Below, one piece after another: positions 39,577-52,654 of a stretch of DNA of 64,000 nucleotides. This stretch comes from Candidatus Eremiobacteria bacterium (lineage in GTDB: Bacteria; Vulcanimicrobiota; Vulcanimicrobiia; Vulcanimicrobiales; Vulcanimicrobiaceae): the NCBI GenBank assembly GCA_963808755.1, contig CAWEGP010000002.1, positions 379,245 through 443,244 of the forward strand, in the 5' to 3' direction. The first letter of the stretch is position 1, and every line of letters begins with the position of its first letter. The translations under genes and the position numbers were made by a program. The notes under the pieces are model-generated. The model worked only from the letters and a program-made list of their open reading frames with translations. It searched no databases and was not told where the DNA came from.

Positions 39577-40872
39577 GTGCGTTTTTTGATCTGCGCTCTC
39601 GTAGCGCTTGCTTTAGTAACGGTCAGTTCGTTTGCTGCCGGTACGCACGCGGATCAGCCTCGGCCGGCGGCAATACAGTTGCAAGACCTGACGGCGCGCG
39701 CGCATGGAGCGAGAGTGCGTGGGGATTGGGGTACCTTTCGCGCTACCGCACAAGAGATCGTTGGCCTTTTGAACGGCTCACCGGATGCGCTCCTCGATCT
39801 TGCGCGCGGAAAGGCCCACACGGGCGACGAGCGGGGCGCGCTTGCGGACTTGCAGACGATCGCGGCCATGGGGCAGTCACGGCCGATCATTGAGCAACTA
39901 CCGGATTTCGCGTCGATTCGCGGTGATCGCGATTTCAAGATCGTTCTGCAACGCATGACGGCGAATGCAACGGCGCTGTCTTTCGGAAAGCCGGCGTTCA
40001 CGATCGCGGACCGGCGATTGCTTCCCGAAGATATCGACTATGATGCCGCGACCGCTCAATTTTTCTTAACGAGCGTGCTGGAGAAAAAGATCGCGATCGT
40101 CGACCGTAACGGACGCTTAAGAGACTTTGCGAAGAGCCCGAGCGATTGGCCGATGCTTGCGCTCAAAGTTGACGCGAAACGACGTATCGTCTGGGCGACG
40201 GAAGTTGCGCTCGATGGGTTCAGCAGCGTCAATAAGCGCGATTGGGGACGTTCCGCGGTCCTGGCATACGACGCCGATAGCGGAAAGCTTCTGCGCCGCA
40301 TCGAGGGACCGCGGCCGAGCGCTCTTGGCGACATGGCGTTGGATTCATACGGCAACGTTCTGGTTTCGGACGGCAACGGCGGCGGCGTCTATAGCGCTGG
40401 AATCAGCGGTCCGTTTAAGCGCGTCGATGCCGGCGACTTCATCTCGCCGCAGACGCCGGCGTTCATCCCCGGGACCAGCAACGTCTTTGTCCCGGACTAC
40501 GTGCGAGGCCTTGGGATACTGAATATTCGCACGAGACACGTTCGATGGATTCCGATGGAGAACAGGTACGCTCTCGAAGGGATCGATGGACTCTATTTCG
40601 TCGATAACACGCTCATCGCCGTGGAAAACGGAACGTCTCCGGAGCGCGTGATCCGCTTTCAGCTCGATTCTGCCCGTACGCACGTCACATCGGCGCGAGA
40701 CATCGAGCGTGCGACGCCGAATATCGACCCGACACACGGCGTCGTTGTCGGCAGCGAATTCTACTACATCTCCAACGCCGGCTGGGACGCGCTTGGCGAC
40801 AACGGTGCCGTAAAACGCGGCTTAGCGTTATCCTTTCCGCGAATCATGCGCGCCCCGTTGAGCGATCCATAG
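39577..40872 (+). CDS. Secreted hypothetical protein with TPR-like N-region and beta-propeller-like (SMP-30/gluconolactonase/LRE- or NHL-like) C-region; GTG start
   Basis: Signal peptide 'MRFLICALVALALVTVSSFAAG'. Repeated 'DxxGNVLVSD / GIDGLYFVD' blade-like units. Confidence 0.3.
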   Translation: MRFLICALVALALVTVSSFAAGTHADQPRPAAIQLQDLTARAHGARVRGDWGTFRATAQEIVGLLNGSPDALLDLARGKAHTGDERGALADLQTIAAMGQSRPIIEQLPDFASIRGDRDFKIVLQRMTANATALSFGKPAFTIADRRLLPEDIDYDAATAQFFLTSVLEKKIAIVDRNGRLRDFAKSPSDWPMLALKVDAKRRIVWATEVALDGFSSVNKRDWGRSAVLAYDADSGKLLRRIEGPRPSALGDMALDSYGNVLVSDGNGGGVYSAGISGPFKRVDAGDFISPQTPAFIPGTSNVFVPDYVRGLGILNIRTRHVRWIPMENRYALEGIDGLYFVDNTLIAVENGTSPERVIRFQLDSARTHVTSARDIERATPNIDPTHGVVVGSEFYYISNAGWDALGDNGAVKRGLALSFPRIMRAPLSDP

Positions 40873-42221: not shown

Positions 42222-43139
42222 CTACAGTGTGAGTTCCCAGTCTTGTCCGATCAGATCCTTTCCAAACTTGTCGTGGCGCTCTTCCTTGACAAGCTGAAAT
42301 CCCGCCCCCTCATACAAGTGCCGAGCAGCGCGCAATACGTCGTTCGTCCACAACGTTATCTTGCGGTAGCCGCACTTACGGGCGAATTCAACGCATTCGC
42401 GAATTAAGCGCCGACCAATGCCCAAGCCACGTGCGCTCGGTTCGACAAGCAGTAGTCGCAATTGCGCAACCGTCTCGCTCTTCTTCACCAGAAATACGCA
42501 GCCCAATTTCTCGCCGTCGCGCTCGGCGATCCAACAACGCTCGCGGTTCGAATCGAATTTCTCGACAAAGGCAGCGGCTATCTCGGCGGTGAGAGCTTCG
42601 CACCGTTCGTCCCAGCCGTACTCCCGCGCGTACAGGACACCATGTCGACTGATGACCCAACCGATGTCTCCGGGACGAAGGGTCGACCGCAAAACGTAGT
42701 TTGGCTCGTCAGTGCTCCGATCGCCAAGAATACCTTGAATCGCGCTCATCGCACTGCAGAGACTCTCTTGCTCGACATCGGAGAGGTTGCTCAACATAGC
42801 GGCGACTTCTTCATGTTGCCGCCGATCGAGCGACGCAAAGGCGTCCTTTCCCTTCGCCGTCAAGGACAGATGGCTTTGGCGCGCATCGGCCGTCGACGTC
42901 TTGCGTCGAATCAATCCGCGCTGAACGAAGCCTTGGAGCATGCGGCTGAGATAGCCACCGTCGAGCGCGAGCGCTTTGGCGAGCTCGGTGGCTGTGATAT
43001 TCTCCGTCTGCCGCAGTTCAAAAAGAACGCGTCCCTCGACCAGCGAGAATGGGCTCTCGAGAAACTTCTTCTGCAGCACGCCTGCGTGCCGCGTGTAAAA
43101 CCGATTGAATTTGCGGACACATTCTACGCGCATGCTCAT
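42222..43139 (-). CDS. MarR-family HTH regulator fused to a GNAT N-acetyltransferase domain
   Basis: N-terminal 'LVEGRVLFELRQTENITATELAKALALDGGYLSRMLQGFVQRGLIRR' is a MarR winged HTH. C-terminal 'LLLVEPSARGLGIGRRLIRECVEFARKCGYRKITLWT' is GNAT motif A. Confidence 0.65.
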   Translation of the reverse strand: MSMRVECVRKFNRFYTRHAGVLQKKFLESPFSLVEGRVLFELRQTENITATELAKALALDGGYLSRMLQGFVQRGLIRRKTSTADARQSHLSLTAKGKDAFASLDRRQHEEVAAMLSNLSDVEQESLCSAMSAIQGILGDRSTDEPNYVLRSTLRPGDIGWVISRHGVLYAREYGWDERCEALTAEIAAAFVEKFDSNRERCWIAERDGEKLGCVFLVKKSETVAQLRLLLVEPSARGLGIGRRLIRECVEFARKCGYRKITLWTNDVLRAARHLYEGAGFQLVKEERHDKFGKDLIGQDWELTL

Positions 43140-43192: not shown

Positions 43193-43381
43193 TCACCAGA
43201 GCTGGCCCTCAGCAAGAACCATGTACAGAATCGGGCCTATGCCCCACAAGATGCACACGACTGCCCAGAGGATCTTCTTCGTTCCATCCATGTCCGCGCG
43301 TGCGGCGATATGGATCCATGCCAAAACGACGGCAATCGGATGCAAGAAGACCGCGAGCAGAATCTCGAGCAGCAGTTTCAT
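43193..43381 (-). CDS. Small membrane protein of the PLDc_N (cardiolipin-synthase N-terminal-like) type, translationally coupled (ATGA) to the upstream GntR gene
   Basis: 'MKLLLEILLAVFLHPIAVVLAWIHIAARADMDGTKKILWAVVCILWGIGPILYMVL' is the PLDc_N two-helix pattern. Confidence 0.45.
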   Translation of the reverse strand: MKLLLEILLAVFLHPIAVVLAWIHIAARADMDGTKKILWAVVCILWGIGPILYMVLAEGQLW

Positions 43382-44022
43382 GCCGTGGCATTCGCTCGGC
43401 TCAAGTGAGATACCAGCATGGCGCCCGGCACGATGATGTGGTCGGTAAGCAGCGTACAAGCGTCGTTGACTCTTCCGCTCTCGATTAACTTCAGGAGCCG
43501 GCGATGCTCTCGCTGCGAAGCAGTGAAGTTTCCAACGACGGCGGCCTCATGATGAAGATACCGTTCGACATTACGCTGCAACGATAGAATCGTGGCCAAC
43601 AACCGAGGCCGATGCGCTGGTTCAAAGATGATCCGGTGGAACTCGGTGTTGAGTTCTCCCCAGCGCGATGGGTTGCGATCGATTTTATCCAATACGCGCG
43701 CGGCCTTACGCAGGTCGGCTTGTGAGGTTCTCGGGATAGCAAGACGCAATGCACAACATTCCAATGCGACCCGCATCTCGTTCAGCTCTTGGAGTTCATC
43801 GCCGGAGAGCGCCGCTACGAACGCCCCGCGGCGAGGGCGAATTTCAACGAGGCCCTCTGCTTCAAGACGGCGCAACGCCTCGCGCACGGGGATGTGGCTA
43901 ACGCCCAGAGCGCTGGCCAGTTCATCTTGACGCAGCGGCGCACCCGGCGCGAATCGCCCAGCCACGATATCGCTTCGGAGTTGAGCAAGAATATCGTCGG
44001 GAGTGGACAGAGCAGACTTCAT
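43378..44022 (-). CDS. GntR-family (FadR/FCD subfamily) transcriptional regulator
   Basis: 'RQDELASALGVSHIPVREALRRLEAEGLVEIRPRRGAFV' is a GntR HTH, plus a helical FCD C-domain. Confidence 0.75.
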   Translation of the reverse strand: MKSALSTPDDILAQLRSDIVAGRFAPGAPLRQDELASALGVSHIPVREALRRLEAEGLVEIRPRRGAFVAALSGDELQELNEMRVALECCALRLAIPRTSQADLRKAARVLDKIDRNPSRWGELNTEFHRIIFEPAHRPRLLATILSLQRNVERYLHHEAAVVGNFTASQREHRRLLKLIESGRVNDACTLLTDHIIVPGAMLVSHLSRANATA

Positions 44023-44025
44023 GTG

Positions 44026-44050
44026 TTTAATATATTATATATAATTTTGA
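44026..44050. promoter_or_regulatory. AT-rich near-palindromic tract (TTAATATATTATATATAATTTT) in the divergent GntR / M41-like intergenic region; likely overlapping -10 elements/operator
   Basis: Read directly. Only 46 nt separate the divergent start codons. Confidence 0.35.
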
Positions 44051-44068: not shown

Positions 44069-44515
44069 ATGGAATCCAACCCCAAGCGGCTCGCGCCAGC
44101 TACCTATCACAATGCCGGTCACGCTGTTGCGACGGCTCTCATCGAGGCCTCGGTCTCAAGCACCAAATGTGAGGATCCGTCTCATGATGAACGGTGGAAT
44201 GCGGAATACGAAGCCATGACTGCGCTCGGCGGCGTTGTCGCAGAGCGGTTGTTCTTAGGAGTCGTGGAACCCGCCGGCGCCAAGAACGATATTGAAAACG
44301 CTTTCCGCCACATCTCTGTTCTGACGTCCATCCCCGGCGAACAAGCGGCGTACGTCACACTGATGAATACCCGCGTTGAAACGCTGCTCGGCGCGCATCG
44401 CGAATTCATCCAACACGTTGCGGAGACCATCGAACGAACTGACCGGCCCGCAAACGAGATCGCCAGGAGCGATGTGAATACGTTCGTTCGTAGGTCCGTT
44501 GCGTTGATGCAATAA
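44069..44515 (+). CDS. Standalone FtsH-like peptidase-M41 domain protein with HNxxH in place of HExxH (predicted catalytically inactive pseudoprotease)
   Basis: 'YHNAGHAVATALIE' aligns with FtsH 'YHEAGHALV'. 'GAKNDIENAF' aligns with FtsH 'GASNDIERAT'. No AAA+ module, 148 aa. Confidence 0.5.
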   Translation: MESNPKRLAPATYHNAGHAVATALIEASVSSTKCEDPSHDERWNAEYEAMTALGGVVAERLFLGVVEPAGAKNDIENAFRHISVLTSIPGEQAAYVTLMNTRVETLLGAHREFIQHVAETIERTDRPANEIARSDVNTFVRRSVALMQ

Positions 44516-44521
44516 GAGTGC

Positions 44522-44560
44522 GAAGCACCCGAGGCGCGAACGCGCTTCGGGTGCTTTCGA
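44522..44560. terminator. Bidirectional intrinsic terminator between the M41-like (+) and TBDR-like (-) genes
   Basis: GAAGCACCCGAGGCGCG aa CGCGCTTCGGGTGCTTTC, a stem of about 16 bp with one mismatch. Confidence 0.5.
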
Positions 44561-44576
44561 CGGTTGTCGGTACGAG

Positions 44577-47348
44577 CTAGCCGTGGAACGTTACGGTGAG
44601 CCACGCTTGGCGCGACGGCAATCCATAGAGTTCTGCGCCAGTCCCCTGGTCGATCGCGCTCGTTGCATTCCCGAATTGATTTTGCGGTTGGTAGATGCCG
44701 AGGCCGATGAGACCGTACTGCTGGTACGCACTGTTGAACAGGTTCGTCACCCCAAAGTTCAACGTTACCGGACCACTCGTCTGGGATACCGACGCGTCCG
44801 CGTACCAGAACGGCGGGCGTTTGAACGAGTTCCCCGGGCCGATGTACGTGCCGTCCATCTCGGCACGGAAGCCCGAGGGATTTGCGTAGACGAGGCTCGA
44901 GAACGCTTTGCGTAGCGGCGTCGTGTTGAACTGCGCGTCGTTGATCAACGAAACGTTGTTCTGCAGGATGTTTAGCGGGATACCATTGTACGCTGCCGAC
45001 TGGATGCCGTACTGGCCTTCAAACGTAACGTTGCGGACCAGTCCGACTTGCGCATCGAAATTTATGCCGCGGTACGTTGCACGACCCGCGTTGGCAAAAG
45101 TGCTCCATCCGAGTGCTGCCGGCGTTGCAGTAAATCCACACGACCCGCTGATGCGATCGAGGAAGGCCTGCTGCAGCGTTTCCTGGCCCGCGCCCGAAGC
45201 ATTTGAGACCAGTTTCTGCAGAACCGACGCATATTGCGGGAACGCGGAAAGCGGAAGGTTTCCATTGAGAATCGCGTTCTGCTCGACGGAATTGTACGCG
45301 TCGACTTGCAACACCGTGCGCCGGTTCAGGCGATGTCCCAGCGCCAGCTCCTCGTCCCTCGCCGTTTCGGGCTTCAGACCGGCGTTGCTGACTGTTCCTA
45401 CGGAATTCAACGTCCCGGTTTGACAGGTCGGATTGAGACTGAGGGGCGCACCGGTTTGCGGAATCGTCGAGCTGACGAGTGCCGGATCCGGTTCACTGTA
45501 TGAACGCCCTCCCGTCAAACGAACGACGTCGCTCGACGTGGGACGGTAGACGAACGATATGCGCGGGTCGAAGTTTGTGCTCTGCGTGGTCAACGAGCGT
45601 TGTAACCACAGATCAGAGAAGGTGCTGAACTTCAACGATGGCTGCCACGTGTCGCGAACGAAGTAGCTGGTCGACGTCAAAAAATATGTACCATTGAGTG
45701 TCACACTGTCGGGATTTGTAAACGAGGTGATCCCGGCATGCCGCTGATGTTGCGTGTAGTAGCCGAATGAGATGTCATGACGCCCGGTTTGAAATTCGTC
45801 GGACGCAAGGAAGCCGTGCGTCAAGTACGTGTCGAAAAAGAAGGGACCGGTCAAGCTCTTGTGTTCGTCCGACGTATCGTTGTTGATGAATCCGTCGACG
45901 ACGATCTGGGTTTTGCCGAGCTGTTGGGTGACGCGGCCATGGTAGTCTTGCATATGGCTCGCGTTCCAGCGATTCGGACCACCGCCGGCTGGGCCATAGA
46001 AAGCTTGCGCGTATTGCTGCGCGGTCAAGCATCCGTAGCCCGCCGATGAGTTGTTCAACACAGCGATCGTCGTGTTCGAGCAGGTCGTCGGCGTGCCGTT
46101 CAGGACGAAATTAGTGCCGGTCGAGCTTCCCGCTCCACCGCTGACAAGGCCGTTCGCGTTCTGCAGCACGTAAGGATATGAGTTGTAGTCTTGATCGCCG
46201 TTACCGGTCTTGTCGTTCCACGTCGTCATGTTGTATACGCTTGCCAGCATCTGTGTTTTCGAAGAGGGCGCATACGTCAACTTTGCGAGGCCGTTGCGCT
46301 GCGTGTAATCACCAGTGACGACGTAGGTGTTTGCGGCCAAGTTCGCGGATGTGAGATCGGGCGGCGTAACCGGATTTCCGGAGAAATCGGTGCAGGTGCT
46401 GCAAACGGCGCTCGCGCCAAGGTTGCCCGTCTGCGTAATAGCAGCGGGAGCAAAGGTACCATAGGTGCCTTGCGTTGCACCGGCGAGCGCGTAACCGAAC
46501 TTGCCCATCGTGCCGGTAGCCGTGAAACCGCTTAGGTTATGGCCATTATTACCAACGCCTTGTGTAAATGAACTCTCGCGAGTTTGCGTCGGATTCAGCG
46601 TCTCGAAGTTTACGGCACCGGCGATCGTCGAAACGCCATACAAACCGGCTGCGCCGGATCCGAAGATCACGCTGGTTCCGCTGAGGCCCCAAAACGGCGA
46701 TATTTTGTAATTGTATCCACCCCCGAACGCGCCGATCGGTCCAATCGGATGTCCGTCGAGAAGCGTCGCCGTTTCGGTCGCGTCGAATCCGCGGATGCTG
46801 ATCGACATATCGTCGCCAACCGATGGGCTCGTGGCCGAATTTACTCCGGGCAGGCGCGCGAGCAAATCCCCGACGCGCGCGTAGGAGTAATTTTGCACCT
46901 GCGACGGATCGACGTATTCGTTGATCGTCGTCGTCGTTTGCAGCGAGGAACGCGCTGCGACCGCCACCCGGCCAATCTCTTTGAGGTTCGACGATCCGCC
47001 TCGCGTTGCTTGAACGGCGGTCTGAGTCTGAACCGTGTTACCGTTCGTCAGAACGACGGTCGGCACGCTCGTCGAGACATAACCGCGCGCAACGATGAGC
47101 AGAGAATACTCGCCCTGCGGCTCGTTGGAAAAGGTGTACACGCCGTTCGCATCTGTTGAGGCGACAGCGATTTTTTGACTGCCCGCATCGAGCTCAACGG
47201 TTGCGCCGGGAACGGGTAACCCGCCCGAGGCATCGAGGATACGACCGTTAAGGCCGGCGGTGGCACTCTGTGCCTGAACCGCGAGCGGCGCGCTAAAAAG
47301 CGCTGCCGCGAAGACCGCTGCAAGTGTCCGAGAGTTCATACATTTCAT
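44577..47348 (-). CDS. Outer-membrane TonB-dependent-receptor-like protein with N-terminal carboxypeptidase-regulatory-like domain and plug-like region (923 aa)
   Basis: Signal peptide. 'GRILDASGGLPVPGATVELD...TDANGVYTF' is a CarbopepD_reg fold. 'ISIRGFDATETATLLDGHPI' is plug-like. Long beta-barrel-like remainder. Confidence 0.6.
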   Translation of the reverse strand: MKCMNSRTLAAVFAAALFSAPLAVQAQSATAGLNGRILDASGGLPVPGATVELDAGSQKIAVASTDANGVYTFSNEPQGEYSLLIVARGYVSTSVPTVVLTNGNTVQTQTAVQATRGGSSNLKEIGRVAVAARSSLQTTTTINEYVDPSQVQNYSYARVGDLLARLPGVNSATSPSVGDDMSISIRGFDATETATLLDGHPIGPIGAFGGGYNYKISPFWGLSGTSVIFGSGAAGLYGVSTIAGAVNFETLNPTQTRESSFTQGVGNNGHNLSGFTATGTMGKFGYALAGATQGTYGTFAPAAITQTGNLGASAVCSTCTDFSGNPVTPPDLTSANLAANTYVVTGDYTQRNGLAKLTYAPSSKTQMLASVYNMTTWNDKTGNGDQDYNSYPYVLQNANGLVSGGAGSSTGTNFVLNGTPTTCSNTTIAVLNNSSAGYGCLTAQQYAQAFYGPAGGGPNRWNASHMQDYHGRVTQQLGKTQIVVDGFINNDTSDEHKSLTGPFFFDTYLTHGFLASDEFQTGRHDISFGYYTQHQRHAGITSFTNPDSVTLNGTYFLTSTSYFVRDTWQPSLKFSTFSDLWLQRSLTTQSTNFDPRISFVYRPTSSDVVRLTGGRSYSEPDPALVSSTIPQTGAPLSLNPTCQTGTLNSVGTVSNAGLKPETARDEELALGHRLNRRTVLQVDAYNSVEQNAILNGNLPLSAFPQYASVLQKLVSNASGAGQETLQQAFLDRISGSCGFTATPAALGWSTFANAGRATYRGINFDAQVGLVRNVTFEGQYGIQSAAYNGIPLNILQNNVSLINDAQFNTTPLRKAFSSLVYANPSGFRAEMDGTYIGPGNSFKRPPFWYADASVSQTSGPVTLNFGVTNLFNSAYQQYGLIGLGIYQPQNQFGNATSAIDQGTGAELYGLPSRQAWLTVTFHG

Positions 47349-47564: not shown

Positions 47565-49070
47565 ATGCGCAATCCTTTTCAGCATCGCGAAAACGCGCCG
47601 GTCGGCCTGATCACGATCACGGTCATGCTGGGCATGATCATGGCGATCATTGACACGACGATCGTCAACGTCGCGATCAATACGATCGGGGGAAATCTGG
47701 GCGCCTCGGTCGATGAGGTTTCGTGGGTTGCGACCGGATATATTCTGGCGAACGTTTGCGTCATGCCGCTCAACGGCTGGCTCACCGCGTATCTCGGACG
47801 CAAGCGGTTTTACGCCGCCTCGCTCGCAATCTTCACGATTGCGTCGTTTCTCTGCGGCACTGCAACGTCGATCACGCAGTTGATTCTCTATCGCGTGATT
47901 CAAGGCATCGGCGGCGGCGCGCTGCAGCCCACAGCTCAAGCGATTCTTTTTGAAACGTATCCGCCGGAACGGCGCGGTGCGGCAATGGCGATCTTCGGGC
48001 TTGGTGCAATGGTAGGACCGGCGGTTGGCCCCACGCTCGGCGGGTACATCATCGACAACGCCAGCTGGCCGTTGATCTTCTACATTAATATTCCGATCGG
48101 CATCGTGGCTTTCTTGATGACCATGGCGTTCATTCCGAATCCGAAGTTCATCGAGAAAGCCAAAGCGGCGATCGATTGGATAGGCCTCGGTCTGCTCGTA
48201 GCCGGACTTGCGTCCTTGCAATATGTCCTTGAACGCGGCGAACACGATGAATGGTACAGCTCTTCGACGATCGCCTTGCTGACCGTCGTTGCTGTCGTTG
48301 GCTTGACATTCTTTATTTTCAAGATGCTGCGAGACAGGCACCCGCTCGTGCAGTTGCGCGTTTTCCGCCTGTCGTCGTTTGCGATCGGCAACATCATCGG
48401 TATCGTTACGGGATTTGGACTGTTCGGAACGGCATTGATCTTGCCGCTCTTCTTTCAAACCATTTTGAACTTCACCGCGTTCGATACGGGGATGGCGCTG
48501 CTGCCGGGCGCACTCTCTACCGCGGTCAGCATGGTCATTATCGGCCGCCTGAACAACCGGGTCGATCCGCGCATTTCGATTGCCTTCGGAATGCTCGTCT
48601 TCGCGTATTCGACGTGGATGTTGGGTGCACTCAATACGAGCGCAGGATATTGGGACGTGTTTTGGCCTCGGCTGGTTCAAGGTTTCGGATTGGGATTTCT
48701 TTTCGTGCCGCTCTCAACGGTGACGCTCGGCGACGTGCCGATTCCAGAACTCGCCGGCGCGACCGGAGTCAATACGCTCATCCGGCAGATTGGCGGCAGT
48801 TTCGGAATCGCCATTCTTACGACGCTGCTAACCCATGAAACCGCCATCGCTTGGAACGTGCTGGCATCCGGTGTGACGCAAACGCACGGGTATTCGATCG
48901 GGACGCTTACGCAGCTTGTTTCTCAGCAATCGGCGATGATTTCCTACGACTACCTCTTCCGCCTCACGGCGATCGTGTTCGCGCTGTGCACGCCGCTGGT
49001 CTTCTTCATCAAGGTGCACCGCCGTCCGGGCGGCGCGCCGGCGATGGCCGCGGCCGCGATGGCCGAATGA
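47565..49070 (+). CDS. MFS drug:H+ antiporter, DHA2 (EmrB/QacA, 14-TM) family
   Basis: 'MAIIDTTIVNVAINTIGGNLGAS...SWVATGYILANVCVMPLNGWLTAYLGRKR...GGYIIDNASWPLIFYINIPIG' matches EmrB-type motifs. Confidence 0.7.
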   Translation: MRNPFQHRENAPVGLITITVMLGMIMAIIDTTIVNVAINTIGGNLGASVDEVSWVATGYILANVCVMPLNGWLTAYLGRKRFYAASLAIFTIASFLCGTATSITQLILYRVIQGIGGGALQPTAQAILFETYPPERRGAAMAIFGLGAMVGPAVGPTLGGYIIDNASWPLIFYINIPIGIVAFLMTMAFIPNPKFIEKAKAAIDWIGLGLLVAGLASLQYVLERGEHDEWYSSSTIALLTVVAVVGLTFFIFKMLRDRHPLVQLRVFRLSSFAIGNIIGIVTGFGLFGTALILPLFFQTILNFTAFDTGMALLPGALSTAVSMVIIGRLNNRVDPRISIAFGMLVFAYSTWMLGALNTSAGYWDVFWPRLVQGFGLGFLFVPLSTVTLGDVPIPELAGATGVNTLIRQIGGSFGIAILTTLLTHETAIAWNVLASGVTQTHGYSIGTLTQLVSQQSAMISYDYLFRLTAIVFALCTPLVFFIKVHRRPGGAPAMAAAAMAE

Positions 49071-50496
49071 GGTCGCCCAGTTTCCAAATCGCGCGTTCGA
49101 TACGCGTATCCCATGGATGTCCGGCGCTGAGGCGCAAACAATTCGAATAGCGATTCGTCGCTGAGAAGACCTCACCGGGTGCAAAGCAAATGCCCGCCTC
49201 CAATGCCTCACCGAACAACGTGCGTGTGTTGATGTGTGCGGGTAGTTCGAGCCACAGCGTGAAGCCGCCGGCCGGATTACTGACTTTCGTACCGTCCGGA
49301 AACGCATCGGCGATCGCCATCCGCATGTGCGAAATGTTGCGGGCGAAGTCGCTTCTGATACGGCGGAGATGGTGATCGTAGCCGCCTGAGGCGAGAAATT
49401 CGGCGAACGCGGCCTGTGTTAGCGCCGGCCCGCACAGCGTTGACGCGGCTTTTTGCTTCAGCACTTCATGCATGCGCGCTCCGGCGACGATCCAGCCGAT
49501 GCGGTATCCCGGCGCAATGGTTTTCGAAAAGGAGCTGCAGTAGATCGTATTGCCGGCGCGATCGAACGACATGAACGGACGCGGGCGTTCTTGCCCAAAA
49601 TAGATGTCGCCGTAGATATCATCTTCGATCAACGGAACGCCGTGCTTCGCCAGTAACTGCACGAGCGCACGTTTCTTCTCATCGGGCATCGTGCATCCGA
49701 GCGGGTTATTGAAGCTCGACGAAACGAGACACGCTTTGATGCTGTTCTTTGAGAGCATACCCGCCAATGCCGTAAGGTCGATGCCGCTTGATGCGTCGGT
49801 CGGCACTTCCAGAACCTTGAGCCCCAGCGTTTCCAAAATACGCAGTAGACCAAAATAGGTCGGCGATTCAACGGCGATGGTGTCGTTTGCGTCGGCAACC
49901 ACTCGGAGCGCGAGCATCAGCGCTTCAGTGCATCCCGACGTAATTGCAATGTCATCCGGCGGTATCACTTGTTCCCAATGCGATGCGCGCCGCGCAATCT
50001 CTTGGCGTAGATGAACGTCGCCGCGCGGCCCGCCGTACACGTTGTATTCCATTCCCTGACGCCGGGCGATACGCGCGAGGATTCGATCGAGCCGCGTCGC
50101 GGCGAGCAGCTCGCGGCTCGGAACGGCGCAGCCGAGCGGAACATACGACGGGTCGGAGGCGCGTTCAAGAAGATCGAGCATGATATCCGAGACTGCGATA
50201 TCGGCCGGTCGTCGCGACGGTTTGGACATTTCTGGAAGCGGAAGCCGGCACGATGCCCGCCGTTGAGCCACAAAATATCCCGACTGCGGCCGCGCTTCCA
50301 GGACGCCCCGAGCTTCTAGCAGCCGGTATGCCTGCAGCGCGGTTCCGACGCTGACGCGCCGCTCTTCGCTAATCCGGCGCAGCGATGGTACGCGGGATCC
50401 CGGCGTCAAGGCTCCCGCCTCCACGAGCGAAGAAACGAACGCAGCGAGTCGTTCATACTCGTGCGACGCTGTTTCCAAGCACTCGTTCTTGTGCAT
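49009..50496 (-). CDS. MocR/GabR-type regulator (GntR HTH plus aminotransferase-fold domain), divergent from the aminotransferase-PhzF operon
   Basis: N-terminal 'PGSRVPSLRRISEERRVSVGTALQAYRLLEARGVLEARPQSGYFV' is a GntR HTH. C-terminal domain is aminotransferase I/II-like ('SSFSKTIAPGYRIGWIV'). Confidence 0.75.
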   Translation of the reverse strand: MHKNECLETASHEYERLAAFVSSLVEAGALTPGSRVPSLRRISEERRVSVGTALQAYRLLEARGVLEARPQSGYFVAQRRASCRLPLPEMSKPSRRPADIAVSDIMLDLLERASDPSYVPLGCAVPSRELLAATRLDRILARIARRQGMEYNVYGGPRGDVHLRQEIARRASHWEQVIPPDDIAITSGCTEALMLALRVVADANDTIAVESPTYFGLLRILETLGLKVLEVPTDASSGIDLTALAGMLSKNSIKACLVSSSFNNPLGCTMPDEKKRALVQLLAKHGVPLIEDDIYGDIYFGQERPRPFMSFDRAGNTIYCSSFSKTIAPGYRIGWIVAGARMHEVLKQKAASTLCGPALTQAAFAEFLASGGYDHHLRRIRSDFARNISHMRMAIADAFPDGTKVSNPAGGFTLWLELPAHINTRTLFGEALEAGICFAPGEVFSATNRYSNCLRLSAGHPWDTRIERAIWKLGDLIRPSRPRPSPARRPDGGAP

Positions 50497-50553: not shown

Positions 50554-51714
50554 GTGGGATACGCTGTGCTTGGAGGACGTATGCACAGATTTGCGCGGAA
50601 CGACATCATGAGCCTCGTCGGCGATAAGCCGGCATTTGACTTCGGCGAAAGCTACGGCCCGTGTATGCGCCTAGGCAAACTCATGAGCGCCGAAAGCGAT
50701 CTCGACGACCTCTTACTCGAGTACGGGACGGCGCAAGGCGATCTCGCTCTTCGAGAAGCCATCGCGCAACGCAACGGCGCGCACGCCGATGACGTGGTCG
50801 TCACCGTCGGCGGTGCGCACGCCCTCTTTCTCTGCTCGTTTATCGTGTGCGACCGCGGGGACCAAGCCGTGATCGCTTCACCGGTGTTCCCGCCGGCGCG
50901 TGAGACACTTAAGGCGCTCGGAGCGAGCGTCAGCGTGCTACGCCTGACATTCGATAGCTCCTATCAACCCGATATGCGTGCGTTTCGCGAATGCCTCTCG
51001 CACAAAACACGCTTGGTGAGCATCGCGTCACCGCAGAATCCGTCGGGCGTCATCTTCTCGCGAACGACTCTGCGCGAGATGCTTACGATCATGGAAGAAA
51101 TCTGTCCTCAAGCATACCTACTCGTCGACGAGACGTATCGCGAGGCTTCCTACGGCAATGACCCTGTTGCCGACAGCGCATGCACGTTGAGCCCTAAAGT
51201 TGTGTCCATCGCGTCGCTTTCAAAATGCCACGGTGCGGCGGGGTTGCGAATCGGATGGGCAATAACTGCTGATCCGGCATTGCGGGATCAACTCGTGCTG
51301 GGCAAGTTCAACTCCGTGGTTTCGTGCTCTCGCGTCGACGAAGCGCTCGCGCTCGAAGTGCTGGAACAAGACGACGCCATCATGAACGAGCGGCGCGCGC
51401 ACTTGGAAGAGGGACTGCTGAACACCGCTTCGTGGGTAGAACAGAACGGCGCCTGTGTCGAGTGGATACGCCCGAGTGCCGGTGCAATTTGCTGTATTCG
51501 CTTGCGAGCGGACGCCTTTGATGACGCAGCCGTCGAGCGGTTCTACACCGCTCTCGCGGCCGAAAATGCGCGGGTCGCAAGCGGTACGTGGTTTGGCGAG
51601 GATCAACGCGTGTTTCGCTTGGGATTCGGTCTCCTTACGCCCCACCAACGAAACGATGCGTTCCGCGCCTTGACACGATCGCTGGAACGCTCCATCACGG
51701 CGGGAGCGCTGTGA
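50554..51714 (+). CDS. Class I/II PLP-dependent aminotransferase (start uncertain: GTG 50554, ATG 50581 or 50608)
   Basis: 'VSIASPQNPSGVIF', 'LLVDETYREASY', 'SLSKCHGAAGLRIGWAI' (PLP-lysine motif). Confidence 0.7.
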   Translation: MGYAVLGGRMHRFARNDIMSLVGDKPAFDFGESYGPCMRLGKLMSAESDLDDLLLEYGTAQGDLALREAIAQRNGAHADDVVVTVGGAHALFLCSFIVCDRGDQAVIASPVFPPARETLKALGASVSVLRLTFDSSYQPDMRAFRECLSHKTRLVSIASPQNPSGVIFSRTTLREMLTIMEEICPQAYLLVDETYREASYGNDPVADSACTLSPKVVSIASLSKCHGAAGLRIGWAITADPALRDQLVLGKFNSVVSCSRVDEALALEVLEQDDAIMNERRAHLEEGLLNTASWVEQNGACVEWIRPSAGAICCIRLRADAFDDAAVERFYTALAAENARVASGTWFGEDQRVFRLGFGLLTPHQRNDAFRALTRSLERSITAGAL

Positions 51715-51727
51715 AGGAGAATCATCT

Positions 51728-52654
51728 ATGATCCGTGCACGCTACATTCTGCTCGACGTCTTTACCGAGCGCGCCTTTGCAGGAAACCAACTCGCCATTT
51801 TCCCGGAATGCGTTTTCGATGACGTCACGATGCAGCACATTGCCCGCGAACTGAACCTTGCGGAGTCCGTGTTCCTGACGCGTGGACAAGGCGGAGAAGC
51901 CGGCACACTGCGCATCTTCACGCCCGGGCGCGAGGTGCTTTTCGCCGGACATCCGACGATCGGTACTGCCATCGCGCTCGTTGACGAATTGCGGTGGGTT
52001 GATCCAGGCGTTACATCATTTGTTCTTCGGGAACGAATTGGAAATATTCCGATTACGATCGAACGCGATCCCGGCACGATGGCGTGGTTTACGACACCGC
52101 CGACGACGTTCGGTGACCGGATAGGGCGCGCGATGGCGGCATCGATGCTCAATCTTCCCGAATCCGACGTGCGCGATGATGTTCCGGTGCAATTCGCCGG
52201 TGCAGGAAGCCGCTTTCTATTCGTTCCGCTTCAGTCGCGCGATGCGGTCGATCGCGCCGTTGCAGATGAAAGTGTGGCGCGCGGCGTGTTTGCCGGAACC
52301 GATGCGATCGGCATATATCTGTTTGCACAGAGTTTCGATGGCTGCTATGCGCGCATGTTTGCACCAATGTCCGGCATCAGTGAAGATCCTGCGACCGGTA
52401 GTGCAACCGGACCGCTTTACGCGTACCTCACCGAGCACGGCGTCCTTCCAAAACGCGACCGGTTTCTCAATCTTCAGGGCGTCGCAATGGGACGTCGTTC
52501 CGAGCTCCATGTTCGCTGCTTTTGGAAAGAAGAACGCTTAACGCGCATCGATATTGGTGGTCGCGCGGTCGTTGTGGGACGTGGCGAGCTCAGCGTACCA
52601 ATCGTCGAGCAAGCGGACTCAACGCGCGAAAACGCCAGCGCTGCTCGTAGTTGA
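51728..52654 (+). CDS. PhzF-family (phenazine-biosynthesis-like, DapF-fold) isomerase/epimerase
   Basis: 'LLDVFTERAFAGNQLAIFPE...ELNLAESVFL...FTPGREVLFAGHPTIGTA' is the PhzF signature. AAGGAG SD. Confidence 0.75.
   Translation: MIRARYILLDVFTERAFAGNQLAIFPECVFDDVTMQHIARELNLAESVFLTRGQGGEAGTLRIFTPGREVLFAGHPTIGTAIALVDELRWVDPGVTSFVLRERIGNIPITIERDPGTMAWFTTPPTTFGDRIGRAMAASMLNLPESDVRDDVPVQFAGAGSRFLFVPLQSRDAVDRAVADESVARGVFAGTDAIGIYLFAQSFDGCYARMFAPMSGISEDPATGSATGPLYAYLTEHGVLPKRDRFLNLQGVAMGRRSELHVRCFWKEERLTRIDIGGRAVVVGRGELSVPIVEQADSTRENASAARS

Follow-up and report, generated by a model that had tools for sequence, protein, structure and literature searches.

A stand-alone M41-like domain lacking the catalytic glutamate, divergently paired with a GntR/FCD regulator in Candidatus Eremiobacteria

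Introduction

What can a protease domain be kept for once its catalytic residue has gone? The question is raised by a short gene in a 64,000-nucleotide stretch of Candidatus Eremiobacteria DNA (assembly GCA_963808755.1, contig CAWEGP010000002.1, positions 379,245 to 443,244 of the forward strand; hereafter the window, with positions counted from its first letter). Its product, of 148 amino acids (aa), resembles the M41 protease domain of FtsH with Asn in place of the catalytic Glu of the zinc-binding motif (HNAGH for HEAGH), and the gene stands divergently beside that of a GntR-family regulator with an FCD ligand-binding domain. Here we report that the Glu-less and truncated M41 domain is under selection, that the neighbouring GntR/FCD regulator diverges along with it, and that the two genes share a palindrome lying over promoter elements. 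The reading that we favour, with a rough probability of 0.55, is that the product is a GntR-controlled binding protein that carries a zinc site and is not proteolytic, in a two-gene divergent unit of a small clade.

Results and Discussion

A first-pass annotation, made from the letters alone, had described the protein as a stand-alone FtsH-M41-like domain with an HNxxH motif (Glu replaced by Asn), and the sequence, Pfam and Foldseek all bore this description out. Read from the DNA, the protein (Table 1) begins with M-E-S-N-P-K-R-L-A-P-A-T-Y-H14-N15-A-G-H18-A-V and continues further on with G70-A-K-N-D74-I-E-N-A, confirming the two motifs singled out at that stage (YHNAGHAV and GAKNDIENA), the length of 148 aa and the absence of an AAA+ module. 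Just 13 residues precede the first motif, the DNA further upstream being occupied by the divergent GntR gene, and the 148-aa sequence contains no transmembrane segment. M41 was the only Pfam match of the protein, PF01434 scoring 25.8 bits (E 1.2e-5) and so falling short of its gathering score (29.9), and the TIGR01241 model of FtsH reached E 1.8e-4. A single-sequence phmmer search of PDB sequences gave no match even at E up to 10; the best six PDB matches of a family profile built from a 22-sequence alignment were all FtsH or AFG3L2, at weak E values of 0.2-0.4, and the profile aligned with the PDB chains over three colinear segments, namely the HxxGHA helix, the GGxxAE...GAxNDIE stretch and the C-terminal helix. 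The AlphaFold2 model computed from the 22-sequence alignment (predicted local distance difference test, pLDDT, 91.7; predicted template modelling score, pTM, 0.86) consists of six helices and zero strands, and its top 25 Foldseek matches in the PDB were FtsH, AFG3L2 or YME1, with query template modelling (TM) scores of about 0.35-0.68. Sequence identity to genuine FtsH is about 19-25% across the fold, and a search of viral folds in BFVD returned giant-virus FtsH proteins only. Homology to M41 is established indirectly despite the sub-threshold Pfam score because an hhalign comparison of the family with 41 stand-alone proteins that retain HEAGH, which themselves score 40-44 bits for Pfam M41 and so exceed its threshold, gave a probability of 99.6% (E 5.5e-25, 135 columns). 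These alignments and the predicted model show the M41 fold and homology to be real; an unrelated helical family with a coincidental HxxxH, which the first-pass annotation had named as a refuting outcome, was ruled out by Foldseek, by the structural neighbours and by hhalign to the M41 relatives.

With FtsH (PF01434; PDB 2di4, 2ce7) the protein shares the M41 fold and the Asp and second-shell Glu motifs, but it differs by the lack of the transmembrane and AAA+ modules, by Asn in place of Glu, by the deletion of beta residues and of the loop that follows the Asp helix, and by its score below the Pfam threshold. The hhalign comparison placed one large gap in the HNAGH family, right after the HxxGH helix, and in a joint alignment with the genuine FtsH of locus L009 this gap amounted to about 24 residues, the segment that forms beta strands in FtsH; in the same alignment, the further FtsH loop after the Asp helix was missing from all the stand-alone proteins. 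Four features that define an M41 peptidase are therefore wanting (catalytic Glu, beta subdomain, AAA+ module and Pfam threshold), and the HNAGH protein should not be annotated as a protease.

The position of D74 corresponds to an Asp which, from published FtsH structures, we take to be the third zinc ligand, and in zincins it is the edge strand that holds the substrate backbone. The minimal zincin scaffolds described so far retain a three-stranded sheet (PMC3890501). Since the general base and the sheet have both been lost, sequence and model together make peptidase activity very unlikely. A zinc-binding pseudoprotease, as had been proposed in the first-pass annotation, is a reasonable reading and in our view the best one, because the two His, the GAxND Asp and the GGxxAE Glu are all retained and conserved. 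The part of adaptor or regulatory subunit, also suggested at that stage, is no more than a possibility.

An M41 fold retained after the loss of the catalytic residue is also found in FtsHi, of the chloroplast Ycf2-FtsHi import motor. FtsHi, however, keeps the AAA+ module and the membrane anchor, and is a eukaryotic organellar protein in a hetero-hexamer, whereas the HNAGH protein is a soluble bacterial domain that keeps its zinc ligands. The likeness suggests a role in which a mimic of the protease domain, made upon GntR derepression, would dock on or join the FtsH ring, or would hold substrates, and would thus alter degradation. The closest structures are indeed the protease domains of FtsH and FtsHi, which form ring-shaped oligomers, and dead M41 domains can play a structural part in FtsH-type complexes, as chloroplast FtsHi shows (PMC8197885; 8xkv is among the matches). 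Identity to real FtsH is nevertheless no higher than the 19-25% given above, and no genomic link to ftsH was seen in any locus, so that we consider a modulator of FtsH unlikely.

As for the extent of the family, a word-indexed search returned 22 proteins at 57-70% identity, all of them short and stand-alone, and the sole organism name attached to HNAGH members was Candidatus Eremiobacteraeota (Eremiobacterota). When 1.84 billion representatives were searched exhaustively with a profile, 103 matched, again all short proteins; the distant members P0023, P0024 and P0027 (about 30-44% identity) read HNAGH too, and nearly all the others are HEAGH proteins of 160-220 aa. GTDB species representatives contributed one Eremiobacteraeota metagenome-assembled genome and one genuine FtsH, nothing more, and JGI metagenome contigs added only locus L098 and a truncated copy in L099. 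The HNAGH family was absent from IMG/VR, and a tblastn search of plasmids with the window protein gave no match.

In the 22-sequence alignment 27 columns are invariant; H18, E59, N73 and D74 do not vary, and a single sequence departs at H14. E59 aligns with the second-shell Glu (GGxxAE) of FtsH and D74 with the Asp of GAxND. HNAGH is read by 17 of the 19 close relatives whose N-terminus is available, the other two reading HHAGH and RNAGH, and the Asn is kept in about 25 relatives. Its codon is AAT or AAC depending on the lineage, and the step from Glu to Asn takes two base changes. Pairwise ratios of nonsynonymous to synonymous substitution rates (dN/dS) were 0.07-0.26 across lineages, with dS saturated, and an independent assembly from another read set (L097) encodes a 148-aa protein without a single difference, the order of the genes being the same as well. 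An Asn produced by sequencing error, the other doubt attached to the first-pass annotation, was ruled out by the conservation of the residue, by the occurrence of both Asn codons, by dN/dS and by the independent assembly. Asn15 is a selected residue, and the M41-like gene is under purifying selection.

The same data bear on whether the gene might be a decaying remnant of a prophage protease, without any present function. Relatives do lie in mobile elements and a truncated copy does exist, but the dN/dS values, the number of invariant columns among 22 sequences, the confident AlphaFold2 model and the intact open reading frames (ORFs) with partner and control site in seven lineages make this explanation highly improbable.

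Cys34 and His39 are near-invariant in the close family and are followed by R42-W43-N-A-E46, in the loop that stands in for the missing beta region (window 44168-44185, codons 34-39). They are particular to the close family and to P0023, being absent from P0024 and P0027, and might act as extra metal ligands or as a binding surface.

Two further loci can be described here. The truncated M41-like copy of L099 (2990-3166) covers residues 64-122 only, at 61% identity, and has neither an intact ORF nor a GntR neighbour; it lies close to one end of a 489-kb metagenome contig and is probably a decayed paralogue. A tRNA integration site at this locus, suspected from a T-arm-like sequence upstream, was dropped when ARAGORN found no tRNA. 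The locus of P0023 (L010, 402-776 and 1611-2474; 44% identity), with no FCD GntR neighbour, has a SnoaL/NTF2-like ORF upstream and, downstream, a convergent gene that by eye resembles the aminotransferase part of MocR and within which the contig ends.

Turning to the partner, the GntR/FCD gene lies 46 nucleotides (nt) from the M41-like gene in divergent orientation, and its TGA stop overlaps the ATG of a small ORF as ATGA; this arrangement, already noted in the first-pass annotation, agrees with Pfam and with the coordinates. The small ORF had been given as a 63-aa PLDc_N protein: the PLDc_N match stood, at a score just above the cut-off (Table 1), while the length is 62 aa. The closest structure to the GntR/FCD protein was 3c7j (E 2.9e-27), and a triad of His residues (H129, H173 and H195) is invariant in six orthologues, at positions presumably typical of the metal/ligand site of FCD domains, as in FCD structures such as 3fms, which was among the structure matches.

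In every close-family locus with enough flanking sequence, an orthologue of the GntR/FCD gene (59-66% identity to that of the window) is divergent from the M41-like gene. Seven distinct lineages are represented (window/L097, L001/L002, L003, L004/L005, L006, L007 and L098), and across them the M41-like proteins are 58-68% identical, a divergence similar to that of the regulator. The gene located 3' of GntR differs from one to the other, with an aminotransferase in L001, an S10 peptidase in L003, a PALP enzyme in L006, a phosphoesterase in L007, the PLDc_N gene in the window and none in L004/L005, and the genes 3' of the M41-like gene vary between lineages too. As only the GntR and M41-like genes are kept while the flanks vary, the conserved unit is the pair. 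A conserved trio including the PLDc_N gene, which the first-pass annotation had put forward for checking, was ruled out: tblastn found the PLDc_N gene only in the window and in L097, which is the same organism, and this gene is local cargo outside the conserved module.

The His triad of the partner and the nature of the neighbouring genes are also relevant to the possibility that the M41-like protein is still an enzyme or a metal handler, its H-H-D and Asn site catalysing some other zinc-dependent reaction on a small molecule related to the FCD ligand, or else buffering or delivering metal. Conservation of the retained metal ligands is strong, Cys34 and His39 would add to them in the loop that took the place of the beta region, the FCD domain of the partner keeps a metal-type triad, and the variable neighbours often encode enzymes of amino-acid or peptide metabolism. 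Nonetheless, no working zincin with Asn in place of the general base is known to us, the two loop residues are missing from the distant HNAGH members P0024 and P0027, and the neighbour genes are not conserved; we regard such a function as quite unlikely.

The two genes also have a candidate control site in common. The palindrome between them (Table 1) is the sole match in the 64-kb window (57% G+C) when as many as 3 mismatches are allowed, the expected number being 0.04. Each of the loci L001-L007, L097 and L098 contains one copy, at a distance of 4-6 nt from the start codon of GntR; in L098 it extends to a perfect palindrome of 24 base pairs (bp). The intergenic DNA measures 16-46 nt in most loci, and the palindrome overlaps the predicted -10 element of the M41-like gene. 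By eye, TGGACA or TGGACG sits 16-18 nt 5' of TAATAT or TAGTAT in 6 of the 6 aligned loci.

Three loci are especially compact: in L003 (5983-6003), L006 (5983-6003) and L007 (2164-2182) the two start codons are separated by 16-18 nt, all of it taken up by the palindrome. The ATG of the M41-like gene follows its -10 element by 7-8 nt, and on the opposite strand a -10-like hexamer lies at a distance of 6-7 nt from the ATG of GntR. From these distances, both genes of the three loci are probably transcribed without leaders, from overlapping back-to-back -10 boxes.

Under the reading that we favour, a GntR dimer would bind the palindrome and repress its own operon together with the M41-like gene, and a ligand bound by the FCD domain would lift this repression. 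The M41-like protein would then be made and loaded with zinc, unable to cut, and it would bind some partner, peptide or protein, and leave it intact, such binding being the regulated output. GntR itself and the FtsH of the cell are candidates for this partner.

Some observations weigh against this reading. GntR operators of the FadR type follow a T.GT-N-AC.A pattern, and the palindrome is without the T.GT...AC.A core (GT/AC) of that consensus; it could be kept purely as two back-to-back -10 boxes serving leaderless or short-leader transcripts. Two relatives deviate at the motif itself, P0007 having Arg at the first His and P0014 having His in place of Asn. The distant HNAGH protein P0023 (L010) is without an FCD-type GntR neighbour and, HNAGH being unpaired there, the change from Glu to Asn is older than the pairing with GntR. 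Adjacency, moreover, cannot tell a regulator that controls a gene from two proteins that interact.

The origin of the family may be sought among the HEAGH stand-alone proteins, which are its nearest sequence relatives. The profile search of the HNAGH family reaches them at E 1e-10 to 1e-4, and they form at least 1774 clusters (90% identity) with E up to 1e-6. The two groups have in common the stand-alone architecture and the E..AY..L / RxE C-terminal helices. The HEAGH proteins, however, keep HEAGH and the beta region, adjoin integrases or recombinases and are present in IMG/VR, whereas the HNAGH proteins are chromosomal and have the beta region deleted. HEAGH members are annotated only as 'hypothetical', 'Peptidase M41 domain-containing protein' or 'ATP-dependent Zn protease', and the family appears entirely uncharacterised.

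Wherever their context is visible, HEAGH genes sit in integrative mobile elements (Table 1); the neighbourhood of the M41-like gene in the window contains no recombinase, with transporters and metabolic genes in its place. No GntR gene was called beside a HEAGH gene in the few loci inspected (L011-L019 and L094-L096), which do not amount to a systematic survey. As PADLOC gave no match for the HNAGH protein or its relatives, and PHROGs only the FtsH-like phrog_30773, for HEAGH relatives, there is no link to a known defence system; a tblastn search of cultured phages with the HEAGH protein P0125 gave no match. Descent from the HEAGH proteins of integrative elements suggests that the M41-like protein is a domesticated former protease, and the simplest history compatible with the sequences would be that of a mobile-element protease first domesticated and then inactivated. 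This origin, like the loss of the beta region and the conserved palindromic site, had been missed in the first-pass annotation.

A comparison may be drawn with the ImmA/IrrE metalloproteases, which bind and cleave ImmR/DdrO, ImmA-type proteases being typically found at the integrase-proximal ends of mobile elements. Like ImmA/IrrE (M78, COG2856) with its Xre repressor, the M41-like protein is a small helical domain of the HEXXH type, genetically tied to one transcription factor in the seven close lineages but not in the distant L010, and the position of its HEAGH relatives in mobile elements resembles that of ImmA. It belongs, however, to another peptidase family and fold, its partner is of the GntR/FCD and not of the Xre type, the two genes are divergent and the Glu is absent; cleavage of the regulator is therefore not expected. 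What may have survived is a fossil of a protease-repressor switch, in which the M41-like protein would bind GntR without cleaving it and, in the role of anti-repressor or co-sensor, tune its occupancy of the palindrome. This alternative, which we can propose only tentatively, would account for two genes that occur strictly together and have diverged to a like degree while everything around them varies, and it fits the location of HEAGH relatives, which lie at the end of the element nearest the integrase, in the company of small DNA-binding proteins (an excisionase-like HTH_17 protein in L014, and in L096 a NikA-like ribbon-helix-helix, RHH, protein). Pairs of a metalloprotease and a repressor are, besides, an established design (PMC6868357, PMC12828697). 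It is less easily reconciled with the M41 fold, as opposed to M78/COG2856, with genes that are divergent and not co-transcribed, with a partner that has a ligand-sensing domain of its own, with the absence of any fusion of the two domains among the profile-search matches, and with P0023, which has no GntR partner. A possible but doubtful version of it is that a former mobile-element protease was domesticated as a non-cleaving partner of GntR/FCD, bound through the remains of the active-site cleft in a possibly metal- or peptide-dependent manner, the two proteins forming a switch at the palindrome. A literature search for the HNAGH family returned no paper on stand-alone M41 domains, on a pairing of M41 with GntR or on M41 together with ImmA.

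Other Features of the Window

The coordinates of the features are collected in Table 1. The hairpin between the M41-like gene and the convergent TonB-dependent receptor gene folded better than any of its shuffled versions (0 of 200 folded as well). It has a weak U-tract and was not among the calls of the consensus terminator scan. It is probably a bidirectional terminator, which would leave the M41-like gene monocistronic in the window.

Table 1. Features of the window around the M41-like gene, and HEAGH stand-alone genes in other loci. Promoter, operator and hairpin entries are predictions.
Feature	Locus	Position	Strand	Basis or remark
Stand-alone all-helical M41 (FtsH protease-domain) homologue, HNAGH subfamily, 148 aa	window	44069..44515	+	ORF from the first start codon after a stop
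Codons H14-N15-A16-G17-H18, degenerate HEXXH (Glu to Asn, codon AAT)	window	44108..44122	+	YHNAGHAV read in the sequence
Codons G70-A-K-N-D74, D74 aligned to the FtsH Asp zinc ligand (GAxNDIE)	window	44276..44290	+	Alignments to FtsH chains and to the FtsH of L009
Divergent GntR-family regulator with FCD ligand-binding domain, 214 aa	window	43378..44022	-	Pfam GntR 77.9 bits, FCD 80.4 bits
17-bp AT-rich palindrome TAATATATTATATATAA, consensus TAATATAT-N-ATATATTA; candidate GntR operator over divergent -10 elements	window	44028..44044	.	One mismatch to the consensus
Promoter-like site of the M41-like gene: -35 TGGACA in GntR codons 5-7, 18-nt spacer, -10 TAATAT forming the left half of the palindrome	window	44004..44033	+	Consensus scan; prediction
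PLDc_N-type two-helix membrane protein, 62 aa	window	43193..43381	-	Pfam PLDc_N 23.4 bits, cut-off 23.3; translationally coupled to GntR through the ATGA overlap
Strong hairpin between the convergent M41-like and TonB-dependent receptor genes	window	44518..44573	.	RNA fold -37.8 kcal/mol, z -6.4
HEAGH gene	L011	6001-6552		Directly after a tyrosine integrase, before a Toprim/D5 primase-helicase
HEAGH gene	L096	5001-5477		Overlaps the integrase start; NikA-like RHH protein nearby
HEAGH gene	L095	5001-5615		Divergent from a resolvase
HEAGH gene (Anaeromyxobacter diazotrophicus)	L094	5001-5540		Within a series of small ORFs, closed by a large serine recombinase
HEAGH genes	L014-L019	IMG/VR viral contigs		Beside excisionase-like helix-turn-helix (HTH; HTH_17 in L014), Xre and recombinase genes

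The surroundings are those of an ordinary chromosome, with major facilitator superfamily (MFS) transporters, a MarR-GNAT fusion, a TonB-dependent receptor, a creatininase, a peptide-binding protein and aminotransferases. The TonB-dependent-receptor-like protein (44577-47348, minus strand; 923 aa) has an N-terminal CarboxypepD_reg domain and a Plug domain. Directly downstream of the PLDc_N gene, a 305-aa fusion (42222-43139, minus strand) joins an N-terminal MarR winged helix to a C-terminal GNAT acetyltransferase. A second divergent unit with a GntR-family member lies 5 kb away from the GntR/M41-like one: a MocR-type regulator (49009-50496, minus strand), made of a GntR HTH and an aminotransferase-fold domain, stands divergently to an aminotransferase gene and, behind it, a PhzF-family gene (50554-52654, plus strand). 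A 431-aa ORF (39577-40872, plus strand), located between the genes of a short-chain fatty-acid transporter and of an MFS transporter, had no Pfam match at E up to 1e-5.

Conclusions

The HNAGH protein is a natural counterpart of the classic experiment by which a protease is killed: the base has been changed and the sheet removed, while the metal ligands are kept and the gene remains under selection. It could reveal what use is made of the zinc site in a protease fold once proteolysis is gone, and its small size and solubility make it easy to study, the conserved regulator and the candidate operator serving as experimental handles. The immediate impact is modest, since the clade is a narrow one of uncultured soil bacteria whose named members are all Eremiobacterota; the finding also points to the far larger HEAGH family in integrative mobile elements. 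If binding of the M41-like protein to GntR proved to be the basis of a switch, the pair would represent a new class of transcriptional control based on a pseudoprotease, and the HEAGH M41 proteins of mobile elements would be ImmA-like anti-repressor proteases.

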